IMG/VR virus record: IMGVR_UViG_3300045988_017468
Source of the DNA: a virus
Reading direction: 5' to 3' (one strand)
DNA length: 42,616 nt
The number at the start of each line of letters is the position of its first letter. The stretch's first letter is position 1. Shown piece by piece: positions 2,748 to 36,983 of the stretch. The notes under the pieces were generated by a model. It worked only from the letters and a program-made list of their open reading frames with translations. It made no database searches and was not told the origin of the DNA. Position numbers and translations under genes: made by a program.

Positions 2748-3053
2748 GCTCCTAGTTAAACTGATTCAAAAGGAAGGTGATTTCATTGACCCAACTTTTG
2801 AGCCAGCCAGTTCCAGACACGAGCAAGTGCGTGAAGCGCTAGGGCTTACAAGGCGGTGCCGACCCGCCAAAGGAAGCGGCGTACCCATAGCCCTGCAAGT
2901 TGTTTTTGCAGCCCGGGCGTTACTTTTGCGCCGCGCATGGCGCAAAAGACGTGCAAACGCGCATGTTTGCATTACCGCCGGGGTGCAAGTGCGTTCTGGT
3001 GACAAATCGGTGAAAAGTCTGTCTGTGAAACAACCGCAGGCAGATTTTTTCTT
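2748..3053 (+). ncRNA. Candidate structured RNA of about 300 nt, antisense to the leader of the cro transcript
   Basis: Bounded by the 2712 promoter and the 3019..3053 terminator. No credible ORF. Perfect hairpins at 2852-2868, 2893-2911, 2923-2948 and 2952-2971; the last two share the loop GCGCAT. Confidence 0.35.
3019..3053 (+). terminator. Intrinsic terminator
   Basis: 7-bp stem CTGTCTG/CAGGCAG (one G-U pair), 11-nt loop, then ATTTTTTCTT. Confidence 0.6.
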
Positions 3054-3115: not shown

Positions 3116-3188
3116 CATAGTAAAAAAGCTTAGGCGGTACGACCCGCTGGGGCTTTGTGTTTTGTTAACTATTTCAACTGACAAGAGC

Positions 3189-3217
3189 ATTATACAGCTA
3201 GCAGAGTTAGTTGTCAA
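3189..3217 (-). promoter_or_regulatory. Consensus promoter TTGACA-17-TATAAT firing leftward toward cro (candidate early lytic promoter)
   Basis: Reverse complement of 3212..3217 is TTGACA and of 3189..3194 is TATAAT, with an exact 17-bp spacer. Confidence 0.65.
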
Positions 3218-3274
3218 CATTTTGTACTAACTTTACTAACTTTTGTATGGATGCACGAAAAAGGAGCTGCTTTT

Positions 3275-3625
3275 ATGAGCACTTTTTACGACAACTATAT
3301 AAAGCTGTGTGCTGTTCACGACAAATCCCCAACTGCGGTATCAAAAGAAATTGGCCTTTCTAACGCAGCTGCCAGTGGCTGGAAAAACGGCAAAAAGCCT
3401 TCTGCGGTTACAAAGCAAAAGCTTGCCGACTACTTTGGTGTCACGGTCGAAGAGTTGACCGGCGAAGAGCAAAAAGAAAAGCCCAACGCCTTAGATGGCA
3501 TTGAGCTTGAAAAATTGTCACCAGCCCGCCGTGCGCTGCTGGAAGCGCTGGAGGGCATGGATGACGAAAACATTATGAAAATTGTTCGGATTGCTCAGGC
3601 AGTTAAAAAGGAGCTTCCAGAGTGA
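3275..3625 (+). CDS. XRE/CI-like HTH repressor without a peptidase domain
   Basis: Start moved to Met9 (MSTFYDNYIKLC...) 8 nt after AAGGAG. HTH segment PTAVSKEIGLSNAAASGWKNGKKP. Divergent from the cro-like gene. Confidence 0.8.
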   Translation: MSTFYDNYIKLCAVHDKSPTAVSKEIGLSNAAASGWKNGKKPSAVTKQKLADYFGVTVEELTGEEQKEKPNALDGIELEKLSPARRALLEALEGMDDENIMKIVRIAQAVKKELPE

Positions 3626-3942
3626 GTATACATCTTAATAGAAAAGAGCTCAAACTTCTGAAAGCCCTTGATCAGGAATATCCCGGTGGTGTTGAACGGA
3701 CAAAAGAATTGTTTCAAGACGCTACGGCGCTTGAAGAGCTTGGCTTTGCAGATTCCGCATCGGTGAGCTATCGCAAGTCTGCGGTTTGGATCACGGAAAG
3801 CGGCAGGCAGTATTTGCGAGATAGAAAAGCAAACAGGTTCTCGCTCCCGACGAAAGTGGTCGGCGGGATTGTCACCTTGATTTTGATTCCGGTTCTGGTG
3901 AATCTGATTTCAGATTATGTATTACCAATACTTTTCAAATAA
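3622..3942 (+). CDS. C-terminally membrane-anchored protein co-transcribed with the repressor
   Basis: GTG start overlaps the repressor stop (GTGA). C-terminal TM helix VVGGIVTLILIPVLVNLISDYVLPILF. Confidence 0.6.
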   Translation: MSIHLNRKELKLLKALDQEYPGGVERTKELFQDATALEELGFADSASVSYRKSAVWITESGRQYLRDRKANRFSLPTKVVGGIVTLILIPVLVNLISDYVLPILFK

Positions 3943-26857: not shown

Positions 26858-26931
26858 TGGTGCCGCTTGCAGGAATCGAACCCGCGTCCTCTGGTTACAA
26901 ATCAGCAGCTCTACCATTGAGCTAAAACGGC
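26858..26931 (-). tRNA. tRNA with anticodon loop UUUGUAA, read as Thr(UGU); the anticodon stem is non-canonical
   Basis: Hand fold: acceptor GCCGTTT/AAGCGGC, D arm GCTC-AATGGTA-GAGC, T arm GCGGG-TTCGATT-CCTGC, encoded CCA. Anticodon-stem pairs 27-43 and 31-39 are mismatched. Confidence 0.6.
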
Positions 26932-26970
26932 ATAAAAAAGCGGCTGACGCTGTGCGCCAACCGCTGAGTA

Positions 26971-27219
26971 TTAATTTGATTTCTGAGAAGCTACCATAAT
27001 AACGCGATTTCCTTTTCCATACGCATTATCGCAAAGTTCCTGAAGATGTTCTCTTGCTTTCTGCATTTCAACCAAAAGAATTCGTTCTTTTGTTTCCTGC
27101 AGGTAATATGGAGAAAGGTCAACGCGTGGGGCGCTGTTCCGTTCAAACATTTCTTGAAGTTTTTTGAGGTCTTCAAACGTACATCCTTCAACCATAGCGG
27201 TGTAAACAATGTTATCCAT
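26971..27219 (-). CDS. Hypothetical protein in an AT-richer patch
   Basis: ORF track, 82 aa; AAGGAGG SD. Confidence 0.5.
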   Translation of the reverse strand: MDNIVYTAMVEGCTFEDLKKLQEMFERNSAPRVDLSPYYLQETKERILLVEMQKAREHLQELCDNAYGKGNRVIMVASQKSN

Positions 27220-32512: not shown

Positions 32513-32923
32513 TTACTTACGGCGCTTTTCCCACTTTGGGTTGTCCACTCCAAGTTCTTTGAGAATAATATCCCTTGCGAAAGTCGTTTGCTTTGATGTA
32601 AATTCGGGCTTTGGGTAAGCATCAATATCGTGTAACACAACCGCTTTACTAATTCTTTCTTCTACCGCTTGTGTAGCAACCCAAGACTTTTTTAACCCTT
32701 CAAACGTGTAATTCTTTGCACCAGCGAAGTTTGGGTTGTTTAGAACTCGTTCTGCTTGCTCCGCATAGTTTTTGTATGTTTCTGTTTCTCTTACAAGCTT
32801 TACTGCCTGCGCGATCTGCTTACTTTCGATAGATGAAAATCCAGCCTCTTTCGCTTCGTTATAGTCCGTTTTTGAATAGTTGCCCCCCGCTCTCGCGGAG
32901 CTGCCCGAACCTCGTTTACTCAC
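32513..32923 (-). CDS. Basic protein, paralog A, N-terminus (M)SKRGSGSSAR
   Basis: GTG start 7 nt after GAGGAGG; 136 aa; AT-richer than the flanks. Confidence 0.7.
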   Translation of the reverse strand: MSKRGSGSSARAGGNYSKTDYNEAKEAGFSSIESKQIAQAVKLVRETETYKNYAEQAERVLNNPNFAGAKNYTFEGLKKSWVATQAVEERISKAVVLHDIDAYPKPEFTSKQTTFARDIILKELGVDNPKWEKRRK

Positions 32924-33539
32924 GGTATTGCCTCCTCTCGTATTGAAATGGTTTAATTTTGGTCACGTTCCAGTCGAATTCTGCCGGGCATTTCCCATAC
33001 CACAAAATGCTGCTCGGCTGCAGCACTTCCAGCGCCTTGCGGCAGTGCTTGGCGAAACATTCCGCTTCGTATGGGTCAGACTGCGTTCCGTGGCTGGAAA
33101 TGCTCACGATAGCGTTTCTCGGTTCTCCATCAAAGCACCAGTCATAGCTTTGCTCACCGCACCAGCAGAGCGTTGGAATCACATGGATTCCGTGGGCTTG
33201 CCAGTAGGCAGCCAGCCAGTGCTTTTTGTAGTGCATAAAAAGCTGCACTGCAAGCGGCATGTCGCTGTACAGAGAAAAATCAGGAGAACATACAGCACCG
33301 AACTGCTGCAAAAGCGGAATGTATTTGTCAGGGTTGTTCCAGAACCGTTCAAACTGGTAATCGTCCTTGTAAAAATGCACGCCCTTTGTGGCCTTGTCTT
33401 TGGCAGTCAGTGCATAGTTGACAGGAATCCATTCCAGCTTGTCGATTCGGATGTCCGTTTCTGGCTTGATCGCGGGGATGCCGTACTTTCCTACGCCTGG
33501 AAAAATCATTTTCTCGGTGTTTTCCATCGGCAGAATCAT
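32916..33539 (-). CDS. DUF4417-like protein
   Basis: Start at Met32 (MILPMENTEK...) behind GGAAGGGA. Motif VHFYKDDYQFERFWNNPDKYIPLLQQFGAVCSPDFSLYSDMP matches my recollection of DUF4417. Confidence 0.7.
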   Translation of the reverse strand: MILPMENTEKMIFPGVGKYGIPAIKPETDIRIDKLEWIPVNYALTAKDKATKGVHFYKDDYQFERFWNNPDKYIPLLQQFGAVCSPDFSLYSDMPLAVQLFMHYKKHWLAAYWQAHGIHVIPTLCWCGEQSYDWCFDGEPRNAIVSISSHGTQSDPYEAECFAKHCRKALEVLQPSSILWYGKCPAEFDWNVTKIKPFQYERRQYRE

Positions 33540-33601
33540 GGCATTCCCTTCCGTGCAAAAGAAAAACCGCCCGGAAATCCGAACGGTCAAAATATCGAAT
33601 A

Positions 33602-33737
33602 TGCCGTCAGCCGGATTTGAACCGGCACCCACGGAATGGATGTGCGCAGTGGTTGGCTATGCAGTGATGTTCCCGTGGTGTCACCAGCGTTGTCCCGCCT
33701 TAAATAGGCGGCGCTCTGCCAATTGAGCTATAGCGGC
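33602..33737 (-). ncRNA. 136-nt tRNA-like gene carrying a ~67-nt insertion in the variable region
   Basis: Hand fold: acceptor GCCGCTA/TGACGGC (1 mismatch), D arm GCTC-AATTGGCA-GAGC, anticodon arm CCGCC-UAUUUAA-GGCGG (A at position 33), T arm GCCGG-TTCAAAT-CCGGC. The insert contains a 6-bp stem CCACGG/CCGTGG. Confidence 0.35.
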
Positions 33738-33860
33738 ATATAAGCAGCAACGCCGTTATCTGTTTTTACCGGACAGTAAGACGTTGCCGCTGCATCTGGA
33801 ACTTTTTGCGGCCAGATGCCCCGCTACTCTCTGCATGCCGTCCCCCGGTCATGCAAAGTC

Positions 33861-33936
33861 TGGCACTCCAGGCAGGGCTCGAACCTGCAACCTGCGGTTT
33901 TGGAGACCGCTGCTCTACCACTTGAGCTGCCGGAGT
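33861..33936 (-). tRNA. tRNA-Trp (anticodon CCA)
   Basis: Canonical 76-nt cloverleaf by hand. Acceptor ACTCCGG/CTGGAGT with A1-U72 and discriminator G73, anticodon arm GCGGT-CUCCAAA-ACCGC, T arm GCAGG-TTCGAGC-CCTGC, encoded CCA. Confidence 0.93.
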
Positions 33937-33942
33937 ATAAAA

Positions 33943-34011
33943 AGCCGCCCTTGGAATCGAACCAGCCGTGCCTACACACACGCACCGCGCCCCACATTGC
34001 GCTCAGGCGGC
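33943..34011 (-). pseudogene. Degenerate tRNA-like element
   Basis: The acceptor (GCCGCCT/GGGCGGC) and D arm (GCGC/GCGC) are good. The T stem is weak, and the anticodon region is a 4-bp stem with a 10-nt loop GUGUGUGUAG. Confidence 0.25.
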
Positions 34012-34020
34012 CATATAGCA

Positions 34021-34054
34021 AATAAAAACAGCCCACGGTTCGCCGCCGGGGCTG
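34021..34054 (-). terminator. Intrinsic terminator
   Basis: Stem CAGCCC-CGG / CCG-GGGCTG, followed on the minus strand by TTTTTATTT. Confidence 0.6.
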
Positions 34055-34428
34055 CTTGAGTTGACGCACATCCTGCGGGGCATGCTGGCCCGCTCGGATT
34101 TCCGGTGCTGCTGTTCACGGGCGGAGGTTTCAGGGCGTGGGCAAGATTTCAGGAATCCCACACCCACCCGCACACCGGTGGTGAATCACTCCATGCGTCA
34201 GACATGCCGCGTTACAGACTTTGCGGCGTTCGGTGCGATGTCGCGGAGTCGAACCGCGTCCCATCTCCCGGGTCGGTGGGGCACCCAAGTGTTACATCGC
34301 ATAGAAGCAGCCCGCAAAGCACGGTGTCAAAGTGAAAAGCGTTAAGCGGCATGAACGAAAGGAGAATCCGTATGGGGCCGCGCTTTGGAAGCTGCTGAGA
34401 AGCGGCGCACCGCTTTGCGCGGTTCCGC
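34024..34428 (-). ncRNA. Candidate structured RNA of about 400 nt with an embedded tRNA-like minihelix
   Basis: Bounded by the 34464..34436 promoter and the 34054..34021 terminator. No ORF. Nested complementary segments are listed in the findings. The acceptor-like stem plus T arm lies at 34235..34300. Confidence 0.4.
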
Positions 34429-34435
34429 TTATGCC

Positions 34436-34464
34436 ATGATACAGGAAGTTAGCACAAATGTCGA
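34436..34464 (-). promoter_or_regulatory. Promoter TCGACA-17-TATCAT
   Basis: Reverse complement of 34459..34464 and 34436..34441, with an exact 17-bp spacer. Confidence 0.5.
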
Positions 34465-34503
34465 TTCAAACGGCACAAAACAAGTGTCAAAATAATGTGT
34501 GTT

Positions 34504-34995
34504 TTATTGGTCAGTTTGGATATTTTTCCAAATTTCAGCAAGCGCCTCCATCCCCTCCCGGATATAGACGGAAACGGCATTGACGTTTTTAAAACTCACG
34601 CTCTCCGCGATTTTGCGCTGGCACAGGTTCTGGACGTAATAATCATAGATGCAGTCAGCTTGTTTACGAGCACGTGCAGACCCACTCAGGCAGTAGGCTC
34701 GCCGGGCAGCCTCGGTGCGCAGTTCACAGAGATCAATCTCCATCTGCTTGAGGTTCCGCTCTTCTGTGTCGATTCTCTCCACGGCAAAGCCCACTTTGTC
34801 ACCGGCTCCGCCGCCCATCGGCATCCCGCTCATGCTCTGGGTGCACTTTTCGGCAGTATCCCGGATGCGCTGGATCTTCTGCTTCTGGGCCTCGACCTGC
34901 TCCGCCAGATCTCTGCACTGCTGAAACCACGCTTTGACGGTTCGGTAATCCGGCAGTTCCGGCTCGTTGGTTTCAGGTGTCCAGGTTTGGATCAT
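34504..34995 (-). CDS. Putative late-gene transcriptional regulator (sigma region-4-like HTH; DUF1492/ArpU/RinA-type position)
   Basis: ORF track, 163 aa. C-terminal HTH-like segment CIYDYYVQNLCQRKIAESVSFKNVNAVSVYIREGMEAL. It is the last gene before the tRNA and packaging region. Confidence 0.5.
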   Translation of the reverse strand: MIQTWTPETNEPELPDYRTVKAWFQQCRDLAEQVEAQKQKIQRIRDTAEKCTQSMSGMPMGGGAGDKVGFAVERIDTEERNLKQMEIDLCELRTEAARRAYCLSGSARARKQADCIYDYYVQNLCQRKIAESVSFKNVNAVSVYIREGMEALAEIWKNIQTDQ

Positions 34996-35608: not shown

Positions 35609-35826
35609 AAGATATCTCTCCCTTCCTGCATCCGCTTGAAGGTTTCCTCGTAGGAGTAGACCTTCGCCGGGACGAACTGCATTGTGTTTGCATCCGCCAG
35701 CATCACAACGTCCTCATGCTTTTCGATCAGCTGGCGAAGCTCTTTCATGTAGGCCACCAGCCCGCAGGCATCCGAATACGAAACGCCGCGGCTCATCAGC
35801 TGCTTGATAAACTGTTTTTGTGTCAT
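35602..35826 (-). CDS. Hypothetical protein
   Basis: ORF track, 74 aa; ATGA overlap with the upstream stop. Confidence 0.55.
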   Translation of the reverse strand: MTQKQFIKQLMSRGVSYSDACGLVAYMKELRQLIEKHEDVVMLADANTMQFVPAKVYSYEETFKRMQEGRDIFC

Positions 35827-36983
35827 GCTTTTCCTCCAATCAAATCATCAATGCACATCTGGGTAGCTTGTTCCGGCACATCTTCCCAGCCAATGCCGAT
35901 GTAGTCCAACACACGCCCCCATCCGTACCAGTTTCCGTTTTCGTCCCGGCAGACGTGTTTCATCCAGAACTCCCACTCTTTGGGATTGGTCTCTCGCAAA
36001 ATGTCGAACCGGTGTGGTCTTCCTTCAACGTGGATGCCAAACCCGCACATTGTGCAGCCGGTGCGCTGTGCCTTTGTGGTGTACAGATTTCCATCCTTGT
36101 CCCGTGCGATCTCGCCGTATTCGGCCGGAATAGGCACATTCAGATCAAGTGCAAGCTGTAAAACGTCCTGTCGATCAAAAATCGCAAATGGGGCGCTGCG
36201 GGTGGTTGTCTTGCCGAAATAGTTGCAGCCGTGCATCTTCAGGCTCTTTTCACGCCGCCCGCCCTCGCTTGCCATAAGGCCCATGTAAGGCACACTGTCG
36301 TGTTCCCTCGCCCAGTCGTTACAGGGCTTTTCCTTGAGGTAGTAGCAGCAGCGGTCAGATACTTTGAACGGCGCAGCCTGATAGCCGAGTGCCGCGCCCT
36401 CCGCATCTGCGCCGCCAAACAAGTCAAGCCATTTCTGCGGAAGCTTCATCCGGCTGTTTTTCTGCCAGCCGCCATATTCGCCGGTCTCGCCGGTGATGAT
36501 TGCATGGCGTACGGTGGCGTTTTGTTCGGTCGGGTTTTGCAGCAGCATGATCTTACCGGCTTTTTCTTTACTGATTACTGGCCAGCCAAATTCCTGCAAG
36601 ACCTGAACTTTACTTTTCAGAGGCTTCAGGAACACAAAAGACGGCGCTTCACCCTCACCTATCCAGTTCTTGTATTCGGTTTCCATCTCTGCTGCTATCT
36701 GCTTGTGCACCTGCTGCACGCCCTTGCCTTCCAGCGATGAGCAGGACACGCATGTAACGGGCAGTCCGATGCTCTCCAAAAAGTAGTGCAGCGTGATGGA
36801 ATCCAGACCTCCCACGGACAGGTGCACGCCCTTGTCGTGTTCTTTTGCCCAGTAATAGAACGCCTCGGCCATCTCTTGCGCGTGTTCCACTTTGCGCTTG
36901 TACTCCCACTTTTGCATCGTCTGAAAGCGCTCAATGTTCGCCAAAGAGCCGTTTTCAGCCATAATTTCCTGAACCGTCTTCAT
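35823..36983 (-). CDS. PAPS-reductase-family (PP-loop ATP pyrophosphatase; DndC/IbrA-like) protein
   Basis: PP-loop motif HLSVGGLDSITL near the N-terminus. C-terminal Cys cluster CTMCGFG. 386 aa. Confidence 0.8.
   Translation of the reverse strand: MKTVQEIMAENGSLANIERFQTMQKWEYKRKVEHAQEMAEAFYYWAKEHDKGVHLSVGGLDSITLHYFLESIGLPVTCVSCSSLEGKGVQQVHKQIAAEMETEYKNWIGEGEAPSFVFLKPLKSKVQVLQEFGWPVISKEKAGKIMLLQNPTEQNATVRHAIITGETGEYGGWQKNSRMKLPQKWLDLFGGADAEGAALGYQAAPFKVSDRCCYYLKEKPCNDWAREHDSVPYMGLMASEGGRREKSLKMHGCNYFGKTTTRSAPFAIFDRQDVLQLALDLNVPIPAEYGEIARDKDGNLYTTKAQRTGCTMCGFGIHVEGRPHRFDILRETNPKEWEFWMKHVCRDENGNWYGWGRVLDYIGIGWEDVPEQATQMCIDDLIGGKA

Follow-up and report, generated by a model that had tools for sequence, protein, structure and literature searches.

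What, if not a protein gene, separates a regulator gene of this virus from its late genes? In the window, the whole stretch of 42,616 nt analysed here (IMG/VR record IMGVR_UViG_3300045988_017468), the original prediction had placed a free-standing structured RNA of ~400 nt that contains a tRNA-like minihelix and lies beside phage tRNAs. Our comparisons indicate that a minus-strand structured RNA of about 410 nt (34430-34021), between a promoter-like site and a terminator-like hairpin, is largely real and has close to the predicted extent; we infer its 5′ start near 34430, its termination and all of its processing steps. The conserved, strand-specific RNA, its bracketing by promoter and terminator and the minihelix were borne out by the analysis, whereas two nested helices, a kinship with ROOL or GOLLD and the free-standing gene were not. 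The region had also been thought to lack a credible ORF. Its ORFs are indeed short and overlap the RNA genes, and the lengths of indels and of the exchangeable cassettes described below are not multiples of three, which rules out a coding explanation.

By gene content, the RNA lies between a regulator gene and late genes (DUF4417, HNH, terminase). Directly upstream, a putative transcription regulator gene of 163 aa (34504..34995, minus strand) holds an identical position across all related loci. Its product matches the PHROG family phrog_36, 'transcriptional regulator', at E 2e-9, and its AF2 model comprises a helical hairpin and three C-terminal helices. Sequence searches of Pfam, NCBIfam and PDB yielded no identity for the protein, and Foldseek with the AF2 model returned no fold match below E 0.06, only coiled-coil noise; a Q-like or sigma-like identity is thus not supported. 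On the other side, the gene predicted to be DUF4417-like is assigned to DUF4417 by Pfam (E 1.6e-53), and HNH and TerL genes are located downstream in relatives. All relatives share the order regulator, promoter, RNA, terminator, tRNAs, second terminator and late genes, where the second intrinsic terminator was detected by the scanner at 33565..33588 (minus strand), just upstream of the DUF4417 gene start.

The promoter-like site TCGACA-17-TATCAT (34436..34464, minus strand) was recovered by the promoter scanner where it had been predicted. The lone scanner match carries no weight (one match vs 1.3 expected in shuffles); the promoter is credible because a -10-like hexamer (TATCAT, TGnTAAAAT, GATATT) keeps its position 5-7 nt upstream of a conserved AAGCGG in every sequence type. 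Segment 34432-34503 is exchanged as a block with the regulator allele, and homology breaks at ~34430, the presumed RNA start. At the opposite end, the predicted intrinsic terminator corresponds to a G+C-rich hairpin followed by a U-run (34021..34054, minus strand), in the window CAGCCCCGG..CCGUGGGCUG + UUUUUAUUU. Hairpin and U-run are kept in all types with stems that differ in sequence and covary between types (CAGCCCCGG.., CAGCCCUGG.., ACCAGCAUG.., CCCUGCACG..); we call the element terminator-like. A simple terminator scanner does not list 34054-34021 because the stem has a bulge.

This layout recalls the late leader of phage lambda with its Q gene, pR′, 6S RNA and tR′. In both cases the late genes come after a regulator gene directly followed by a promoter, a brief non-coding RNA and a terminator (a strong one in lambda), and a promoter-proximal terminator-like signal between regulator and late genes is found here as well. 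The present locus differs in that searches of Pfam, NCBIfam, PDB and protein folds revealed no Q-family regulator, the leader is folded and conserved, a tRNA slot is built into it, and the terminator is followed by tRNA genes. It is possible, if doubtful, that the RNA acts in cis as a leader of the late operon: a short RNA would be stopped at 34054-34021, and read-through over two or three terminators into the tRNAs and late genes would be achieved by antitermination through the regulator or by processive antitermination through a put- or EAR-like 5′ domain. Such a leader would account for the gene order kept in all relatives, for the promoter segment that is exchanged en bloc, up to the boundary at ~34430, whenever the regulator allele changes, and for the fact that the window leaves no space for a promoter between the terminators and the genes behind them. 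It is harder to reconcile with a regulator that has no Q-family, NusG-like or other assignment in Pfam, NCBIfam or PDB, and no conserved antiterminator/terminator alternative pairing was seen by eye; a leader would moreover need neither a tRNA-shaped slot nor a three-way junction with an invariant loop. The RNA body is 85-98% identical at the nucleotide level where the regulator is 73-80% identical, and by this comparison it is far better conserved than the flanking gene. In L265, it is still 95-98% identical beside a regulator that is only about 36% identical to that of the window, and the RNA is therefore not co-adapted to the protein.

We compared the homologous regions of roughly 250 related viral loci and set pair counts against those obtained for slid partners; compensatory changes are present in both domains of the RNA. 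The 5′ domain (34430-34301, minus strand) consists of the terminal hairpin H1 and the helix H2, followed by UUCUAU. H1 (34400..34430; outer stem 34430-25/34405-00, inner stem 34423-19/34413-09) corresponds to a hairpin predicted at about 34393-34425 and covaries in alignment A1, where its helix 1 is 91% paired, its helix 2 is 96% paired and 13 sequences carry a CG to UA double change. The minimum free energy (MFE) structure of the 5′ domain folded alone also gives H1. H2 is an 18-position long-range helix (34307..34395; strands 34395-34378 and 34324-34307) of 17 base pairs and a conserved C.C mismatch. Both sides change in 6/17 pairs, 94% of cells are paired compared with 31-47% for a slid partner, and the MFE recovers the helix in the window and in L266. 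Its pyrimidine-rich loop (34377-34325) contains a small hairpin that displays UUCUCCU (34366-34360). The UUCUAU linker (34301..34306), a presumed RNase P leader, directly abuts the tRNA-like element on the 5′ side; its columns are invariant in alignment A1, with single changes in a few loci, and a motif of the same type, GCUGCUUAUAU, also precedes the tRNA at 33737.

All complementary segments listed in the original prediction are present (8, 8, 7 and 7 bp, the T arm and the 5′ hairpin), yet its two nested helices do not hold up. The 8-bp complementarity 34346-53/34203-10 does not correspond to a conserved helix, and in the second pair (34312-19/34219-26) the segment 34312-19 is the 3′ strand of the better-supported H2. 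Both helices compete with H2, and their 3′ partners are the strands of a local trailer hairpin that can form instead (GCCGC-12 nt-GCGGC; 34206..34227, minus strand). This hairpin is optional: the Y, Z and V types lack the segment entirely, and the X-type trailer GCUGCU..AGCAGC is matched by a compensatory GCUACU..AGUAGC in L237.

The 3′ domain (34063..34199, minus strand) is a three-way junction built from H3 (34199-193/34069-063), H5 (34178-173/34107-102), H4 (34172-167/34121-116) and H6 (34099-096/34073-070). The 7-bp pair 34194-34200/34062-34068, proposed earlier as the closure of this domain, is supported by covariation, with one pair of the closing helix occurring as A-U, G-U or G-C across types. 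MAFFT alignment A2 does not keep H4 and H5 in register from type to type, and we therefore used an explicit segmentation for each type. On this segmentation, which is our own and biased towards structure, 99.6% of 1092 cells are paired compared with 20-52% when slid, and 21 further pair types occur. In H5, every one of the six pairs occurs in two to four canonical forms over five sequence types. Of five types subjected to independent MFE folding, four give this architecture; the junction is missing from the MFE of the X type and of L266.

The structure is tied to one strand. Many G.U pairs in the 5′ and 3′ domains correspond to A.C mismatches on the opposite strand, and only the minus strand folds modestly better than shuffled sequence: z = -2.3 vs -0.8 on the other strand for the whole RNA, -3.2 vs -1.9 for the 5′ domain and -2.2 vs -0.3 for the 3′ domain. 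An RNA without function, that is, a neutrally decaying tRNA array or a DNA-level site such as cos/pac or protein-binding repeats upstream of packaging genes, is scarcely credible on these grounds. The position just upstream of terminase-region genes and the clearly degenerate state of several tRNA-like elements would fit it, but neither form of it explains helices maintained by compensatory changes in both domains, a structure made strand-specific by G.U pairs and a conservation that exceeds that of adjacent coding sequence.

Between the two domains lies the tRNA-like element that had been described as a minihelix. In the window it is represented by allele A (34232..34300, minus strand), with the acceptor stem GCGAUGU/ACAUCGC (34300-294/34241-235), the T arm CGCGG-UUCGACU-CCGCG (34258-242) and the tail A-CC (34234-232). 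Allele A has the 7-bp acceptor stem, the 5-bp T stem, the 7-nt T loop (UUCRANY, G53-C61) and the discriminator of a tRNA; its body does not fit a D arm and an anticodon arm with 5-bp stem, 7-nt loop, U33 and purine 37. ARAGORN, which calls the downstream tRNA-Trp, does not call allele A, and the Rfam tRNA model gives no match at E<=10 across 34020-34440, in agreement with the earlier remark that neither the D nor the anticodon part resembles a tRNA. The cassettes of families B to G are likewise not called as tRNA.

Across the related loci, this slot holds 108 distinct cassettes, which fall into about 15 families and are preceded by UUCUAU and followed by N-CC. The predicted acceptor stem and T arm are both maintained in nearly all of them, and the acceptor and T stems covary across cassette families: all 12 pairs form in 46/72 cassettes, and 25 more contain one or two non-pairs. 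The cassettes range from a genuine tRNA-Asn to a 55-nt minimal mimic. In a survey of 14 loci and all 108 cassettes, ARAGORN called the GTTCCGG family only, and cassettes that qualify as tRNA are limited to the L073 type and the GTTCCGG/L266 type. As read from the sequence, the slot of L266 is filled by tRNA-Asn(GUU)-CCA and the following slot by tRNA-Arg(UCU); the tRNA in the slot of the L073 type passes the Rfam tRNA model at 47 bits. Cassette identity is only 55-79% between loci with 97-100% identical flanks, and cassette families reassort with both promoter alleles. This pattern shows that recombination exchanges cassettes as wholes, be they real tRNAs or minimal mimics, and that the top half alone is maintained. 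Selection on cassette identity is likely, since drift under the assumption that only the top half matters fails to explain cassettes that diverge between such flanks. Within families, variation is scattered and not concentrated in the anticodon-like loop.

The diversity of the slot raises the question of whether the cassettes serve as decoys. In this alternative, which we judge quite unlikely, tRNA mimics or a nuclease-resistant tRNA set would counter defences that cut or modify tRNAs, the conserved domains would provide expression and stability, and cassette diversity would reflect an arms race. Cassettes that are strikingly diverse and reassort inside near-identical flanks agree with it, as do several tRNAs of the operon, of Asn or Lys type, whose anticodon loops or stems are changed (the GTTCCGG family; loops UAUUUAA, CAUUUAA and GAGUUAA; A at position 33). 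Four reports describe defences acting on tRNAs and phage tRNAs that escape them by anticodon-loop changes (PMC10264068, PMC11555353, PMC12851939, PMC13056530). Against decoys, no defence or anti-defence gene is linked to the locus, the variation within families is not focused on one loop, and decoys would not account for the strong conservation of the 5′ and 3′ domains.

Downstream of the terminator-like hairpin, the tRNA-like genes continue on the minus strand. A second pseudo-tRNA (33943..34012) starts 8 nt after the U-run and retains acceptor, D and T arms with a (GU)n loop in place of the anticodon arm. It gives only a weak match to tRNA-Sec (18.7 bits) and occurs in 30 distinct versions with variable (GU)n length in 92 loci. 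It is followed by a canonical tRNA-Trp(CCA) (33861..33936; ARAGORN and Rfam, 59.3 bits), by spacer-2 with two hairpins read from the sequence (33738..33860) and by a tRNA with a variable-arm insertion of ~65 nt and the anticodon loop UAUUUAA (33602..33737; Rfam tRNA model, 45.6 bits). The last of these is the tRNA that fills the cassette slot in L073-type phages. Judged by eye, the second spacer-2 hairpin, GCAGCGGCAACG..CGUUGCUGC + UUAUAU, is a paralogue of H2 and its UUCUAU leader, and covarying versions of spacer-2 are present in L265, L266 and L268. Each tRNA or tRNA-like gene is preceded by a stable hairpin, a U-rich stretch and AU, too closely for a promoter to be accommodated. Because the slot can hold a tRNA-Asn (L266) or a tRNA recognized by Rfam (L073 type), and because the next tRNA-like gene, 8 nt past the U-run, has no space for a promoter of its own, the RNA is probably the leader and first spacer of a tRNA operon rather than a free-standing gene beside tRNAs.

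On balance, we think it probable from these sequence features that a phage ncRNA-tRNA operon opens the late region, with the RNA as its structured leader and first spacer, and that host enzymes process this RNA at the tRNA-like element. RNase P would cut after UUCUAU on the 5′ side of the element, and a nuclease acting on tRNA 3′ ends, such as RNase Z, would cut behind the discriminator or CC, so that the element would serve as punctuation. Cutting would free, as stable small RNAs, (i) a 5′ RNA of ~130 nt that ends in a hairpin and a U-rich tail and (ii) a 3′ RNA of ~210 nt with the terminator hairpin at its end. The downstream tRNAs and late genes would be reached only via read-through of the hairpin/U-run signals, and the released domain RNAs would be the functional products. 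In the V type (L120, L268), the acceptor stem of the cassette is broken, and intact punctuation is therefore not universal.

Operons of this kind have precedents. In the tRNA cluster of phage T4, small stable RNAs (species 1 and 2; rnaC, rnaD) are co-transcribed and released by tRNA-processing enzymes. The two cases would share non-tRNA stable RNAs within a phage tRNA operon, with processing being the presumed part here; the phage group and the host differ, and the present RNA has covariation-supported domains and a variable tRNA slot. MALAT1-mascRNA, mitochondrial tRNA punctuation and the E. coli 3′ETS-leuZ are further examples of tRNA-like handles or spacer RNAs. By analogy, a tRNA shape would set RNA ends via RNase P and RNase Z, and operon spacers would be functional. 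In contrast to these systems, the spacers here are found in a phage and form large covarying domains, not short linear sponges.

We compared the RNA with known families using Rfam 15. The RNA body has no match at the gathering threshold across the whole window or at E<=10 in 33500-34600, nor at E<=10 in five other sequence types or at E<=5 in nine related loci. The matches in the searched sequences are tRNAs, the only hits near the locus, and FuFi-1 elsewhere. Neither GOLLD nor ROOL, the families suggested originally, is matched by its covariance model in the window (E<=10) or in the nine related loci (E<=5), and the fallback suggestion of an undescribed class fits this result. T-box leaders and RNase P RNA likewise have no Rfam match. 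A tmRNA is rejected by ARAGORN and Rfam and by an acceptor stem that is internal, not formed from the 5′ and 3′ ends of the RNA; a bacterial Y RNA (YrlA) is rejected by Rfam and by the opposite topology, with an acceptor stem that opens into the flanks. As far as sequence can tell, the RNA is kin to the known 'phage tRNA-associated structured RNA' kind and stands outside the Rfam 15 families.

Kinship in kind raises the alternative of a scaled-down GOLLD or ROOL, in which the two domains would multimerise into an RNA-only assembly with a covalently linked tRNA; we consider this very improbable. ROOL measures roughly 580 nt, compared with ~410 nt here. GOLLD and ROOL are large structured ncRNAs of phages or prophages, often near tRNA islands, and GOLLD shares the layout of domain, tRNA and domain, with a conserved 3′ region, a 5′ region that varies and, in some cases, a tRNA in the linker between them (PMC12286853). 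The present RNA differs from them in that it is about half the size or less of GOLLD, which commonly exceeds 800 nt (PMC12286853), no Rfam model of either family matches it in sequence or structure, and its tRNA-shaped element is obligatory and occupies a defined, swappable slot with invariant flanks (UUCUAU, N-CC).

What the domain RNAs would do is suggested by AACCUCC (34123..34129, minus strand) on the 3′ side of the H4 loop. The motif is near-invariant in all types, the remainder of the loop differs between types in both length and sequence, and AACCUCC is unpaired in the MFE folds of the W, Y, Z and V types. It equals the anti-Shine-Dalgarno core in the 3′ tail of 16S rRNA. The weakest step of the leader-and-spacer reading is the proposal that Shine-Dalgarno pairing, or contact with the translation machinery, could be seeded by the AACCUCC loop and by the C/U-rich loops of the 5′ domain. 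GGAGGTT sites, the candidate targets of the AACCUCC loop, number 8 in the window vs 4.4 expected, no clear enrichment, and the anti-Shine-Dalgarno-like motif of the 5′ loop is not kept in all types, e.g. L266. An unlikely extension, which joins both domains to the slot, would be a two-domain RNA with AACCUCC on show in one domain and a plug-in tRNA-mimic cassette under diversifying selection. It would hijack translation at mRNA Shine-Dalgarno sites or ribosomes by means of its tRNA-shaped handle, or act as a programmable decoy against tRNA-targeting immune nucleases, with swaps between phages that match the defences of the host.

If the leader-and-spacer reading is correct, the RNA would be an abundant and well-delimited addition to the few large tRNA-linked phage RNAs (GOLLD, ROOL, T4 stable RNAs). 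Its function is made testable by a slot with invariant junctions and >100 natural cassettes, by the AACCUCC loop and by the fixed position in the late operon. It would further imply that phage tRNA-shaped elements can be kept for their top half only, which bears on the annotation of 'tRNA-like' genes and on work on tRNA-targeting immunity.

We also surveyed the distribution of the RNA. A 17-mer scan of species-representative genomes gave 104 matches, nearly all by chance; the homologous ones, L108, L120 and L148, all come from metagenome bins labelled Barnesiella or Bacteroides, which we suspect to be mis-binned. By blastn, the GenBank phage collection contains two unannotated gut 'Bacteriophage sp.' fragments that match, and the other 808 records match in tRNA-Trp only. 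The carriers are probably a family of gut phages with Faecalibacterium as host. The RNA family is present in hundreds of human-gut viral contigs.

We collected relatives of the locus with the upstream protein, a putative regulator encoded by the 163-aa ORF 5′ of the RNA, as query, which returned 80 viral contigs at 57–98% identity; a second query gave 80 more. Scanning for the 3′-domain pattern turned up at least 120 further contigs, and phages at a greater distance came from look-ups of three exact proteins. In total, about 250–270 copies of the unit were extracted, some contigs having been fetched twice. The non-coding region from ~34430 downstream is 85–98% identical where the upstream protein is only 73–80% identical. 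In locus L265, the entire RNA and tRNA module (3132–3826) is 95–98% identical to that of the window, though the L265 protein is only ~36% identical, and its downstream neighbour is a different HTH gene on the opposite strand. Homology breaks at ~34430, and the 70 nt upstream, promoter included, are exchanged along with the protein allele. In every sequence type, the conserved AAGCGG is preceded, 5–7 nt upstream, by a −10-like hexamer, which places the RNA 5′ end, and presumably the transcription start, near 34430. For the promoter originally proposed at 34464..34436 (−; TCGACA-17-TATCAT), the scanner finds the site, but the count of one compares with 1.3 in shuffled sequences. The RNA and tRNA module travels among phages in one piece, with the presumed transcription start as its left edge.

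The RNA occurs in five main sequence types, W (that of the window), X, Y, Z and V, plus L266. Two elements make up its 5′ domain (34430–34301, −), the terminal hairpin H1 and helix H2 (34395–78 with 34324–07). H2 spans 18 positions, among them a conserved C·C mismatch; a pyrimidine-rich loop lies inside it, and an invariant UUCUAU comes after it. In an alignment of 71 sequences, 93.9% of the 5′-domain cells are paired, compared with 31–47% with a slid partner; both sides have changed in 6 of 17 H2 pairs, and none of 500 shuffles reached the covariation score. The 3′ domain (34199–34063, −) forms a three-way junction of H3, an H5/H4 arm with a near-invariant AACCUCC at the end of its loop, and H6 (AUCC/GGAU). 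Using our own per-type segmentation, 99.6% of 1092 cells are paired here vs 20–52% when slid, and the six H5 pairs show two to four canonical pair types each. H3 is the predicted helix 34194–200/34062–68; it closes the domain and covaries between A-U, G-U and G-C. MFE folds computed separately for W, Y, Z and V share the 3′-domain architecture; the X-type fold differs, as does the 3′ domain of L266, whose 5′ domain folds as expected. AACCUCC and the C/U-rich loops may have a role.

The many G·U pairs fix the strand as minus. Folding energies favour the same strand modestly, with z-scores of −2.3 vs −0.8 on the other strand for the whole RNA, −3.2 vs −1.9 for the 5′ domain and −2.2 vs −0.3 for the 3′ domain; these values alone are not decisive, and the comparative data are. 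Neutral decay, or a DNA-level site with no RNA function, is highly improbable because the covariation is strand-specific. The terminator predicted at 34054–34021 is missed by the scanner, but every type has a hairpin there with differing, self-complementary stems, and we infer that it terminates transcription.

All complementary segments of the original prediction are present at their positions; its two nested helices, 34346–53/34203–10 and 34312–19/34219–26, are nevertheless not the conserved fold. The second occupies the 3′ strand of H2. Both also draw on a 22-nt trailer segment 3′ of the cassette (34227–34206), whose two strands can pair with each other instead and which is missing from types Y, Z and V. 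Type X has an unrelated local hairpin at this position, in which L237 shows a compensatory change. W-type RNAs may adopt the nested helices as an alternative conformer. The W-type trailer hairpin complements the leader segments CAUGCCGC and CUUUGCGG (within 34312–34353), and the X-type trailer, GCUGCUCUCCCGAAGCAGC in L073-type phages, complements the invariant leader GCUGCUUC; a leader–trailer stalk around the tRNA could thus replace H2 plus hairpin in an alternative fold, and may be either a switch or a consequence of duplication.

Between the two domains, conservation in W-type RNAs falls from 95% or more to 65–83% at exactly 34293–34245. Over all loci, this slot holds 108 distinct tRNA-like cassettes of about 15 families. 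Among the 72 cassettes analysed in detail, the acceptor stem and T stem are fully paired (12 pairs) in 46, one or two positions fail to pair in 25, and one, of type V, is broken; all are followed by N-CC, and the bodies measure 19 nt to about 120 nt. The V-type cassette (L120/L268, 3643–3712) is a chimera of a family F-like 5′ part and a 3′ part from another tRNA, so that its acceptor stem cannot form; the rule that the top half is kept has an exception here. Most cassettes receive no tRNA call from ARAGORN or Rfam. In L073-type phages the slot holds a tRNA with a long variable-arm insertion (Rfam, 47 bits), and in L266 it reads as a canonical tRNA-Asn(GUU)-CCA, with tRNA-Arg(UCU) in the following slot. 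The slot is therefore a tRNA gene position that consistently preserves the top half alone. Both promoter alleles occur with families A, B, C and E, and cassettes are 55–79% identical between loci with 97–100% identical flanks, which points to exchange through recombination. That the cassette is a tRNA-mimic decoy against tRNA-targeting immunity is an unlikely reading.

At the gathering threshold, Rfam detects tRNA-Trp (33864–33936, −), a tRNA with a ~65-nt insertion (33602–33737, −) and tRNA-Thr(UGU) (26861–26931, −); ARAGORN reports only the Thr and Trp tRNAs, and no tmRNA, in the window. A permissive Rfam search (E ≤ 10) of 33500–34600 gave no match on the RNA strand at 34020–34440, and added only a weak tRNA-Sec-like match at 33943–34012. 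Tested for membership in each Rfam family considered, including the suggested ROOL and GOLLD, the RNA matched none. GOLLD and ROOL are among the closest known counterparts, likewise phage-borne and close to tRNA islands, and the GOLLD linker at times contains a tRNA (PMC12286853), but a GOLLD-like assembly is improbable given the lack of an Rfam match.

Each tRNA or tRNA-like gene is preceded by a stable hairpin, a U-rich stretch and AU: the cassette by H2 and UUCUAU, and the tRNA at 33737 by a paralogous hairpin and UUAUAU. A second pseudo-tRNA (33943–34012, −) begins 8 nt past the U-run. Its acceptor, D and T arms are good, and a (GU)n-containing loop of varying repeat number (68, 69 or 70 nt) replaces the anticodon arm; 92 loci contain 30 distinct versions of it. 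Two further replacements of the anticodon arm are seen, one in L265, L303 and L381, the other in L108 and L339. These elements leave no room for a promoter between them, and the tRNAs further downstream therefore require read-through. We read the region, with somewhat better than even confidence, as the structured leader and spacer of a phage ncRNA–tRNA operon, for which the stable RNAs of the T4 tRNA cluster are a further near counterpart. The tRNA-shaped element would serve as a punctuation mark for RNase P and RNase Z, and the predicted processing would set both domains free as stable RNAs.

The tRNA at 33602–33737 passes the Rfam model and has a structured variable-arm insertion of 65–80 nt, which varies by locus while the tRNA body is kept. 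Position 33 of its anticodon loop is A rather than U (UAUUUAA, CAUUUAA or GAGUUAA), and in L073, L192 and L243 this tRNA also fills the cassette slot. The spacer 3′ of tRNA-Trp (33738–33860, −; L265 3710–3826, L266 4060–4150, L268 3960–4075) folds into two conserved hairpins, whose stems differ from type to type in a compensatory way. The second, with UUAUAU, resembles the H2 and UUCUAU leader and, in phages without the last tRNA, is followed by a U-run, terminator-like. The main-locus arrangement is repeated directly upstream of tRNA-Thr(UGU), where a terminator-like hairpin (26932–26975, −) is joined to UUUUUUAU.

All genes surrounding the RNA lie on the minus strand. The 163-aa ORF (34995–34504) comes first, and 870 nt without a credible ORF separate it from the DUF4417 gene (32916–33542; Pfam, E = 1.6e-53; PHROG 940 'nuclease', E = 5e-56), with a scanner-detected terminator (33588–33565, −) on its 5′ side. 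HNH and TerL genes lie downstream in relatives, and the lambda Q–pR′–6S–tR′ layout is another of the nearest known counterparts. Action in cis as a late leader or antitermination element is possible but doubtful; it, the decoy and the GOLLD-like assembly are not mutually exclusive. The DUF4417 gene and that of a 386-aa protein (35823–36983, −; PAPS-reductase-like PHROG, E = 8e-28) flank the regulator/RNA block, one per side. One upstream-protein homologue, on a 185-kb contig, is labelled Faecalibacterium sp., and the window's G+C content of ~55% fits Faecalibacterium. A second structured RNA motif of this genome, FuFi-1, lies at 2827–3049 (+; 68.3 bits vs a gathering score of 59.6).
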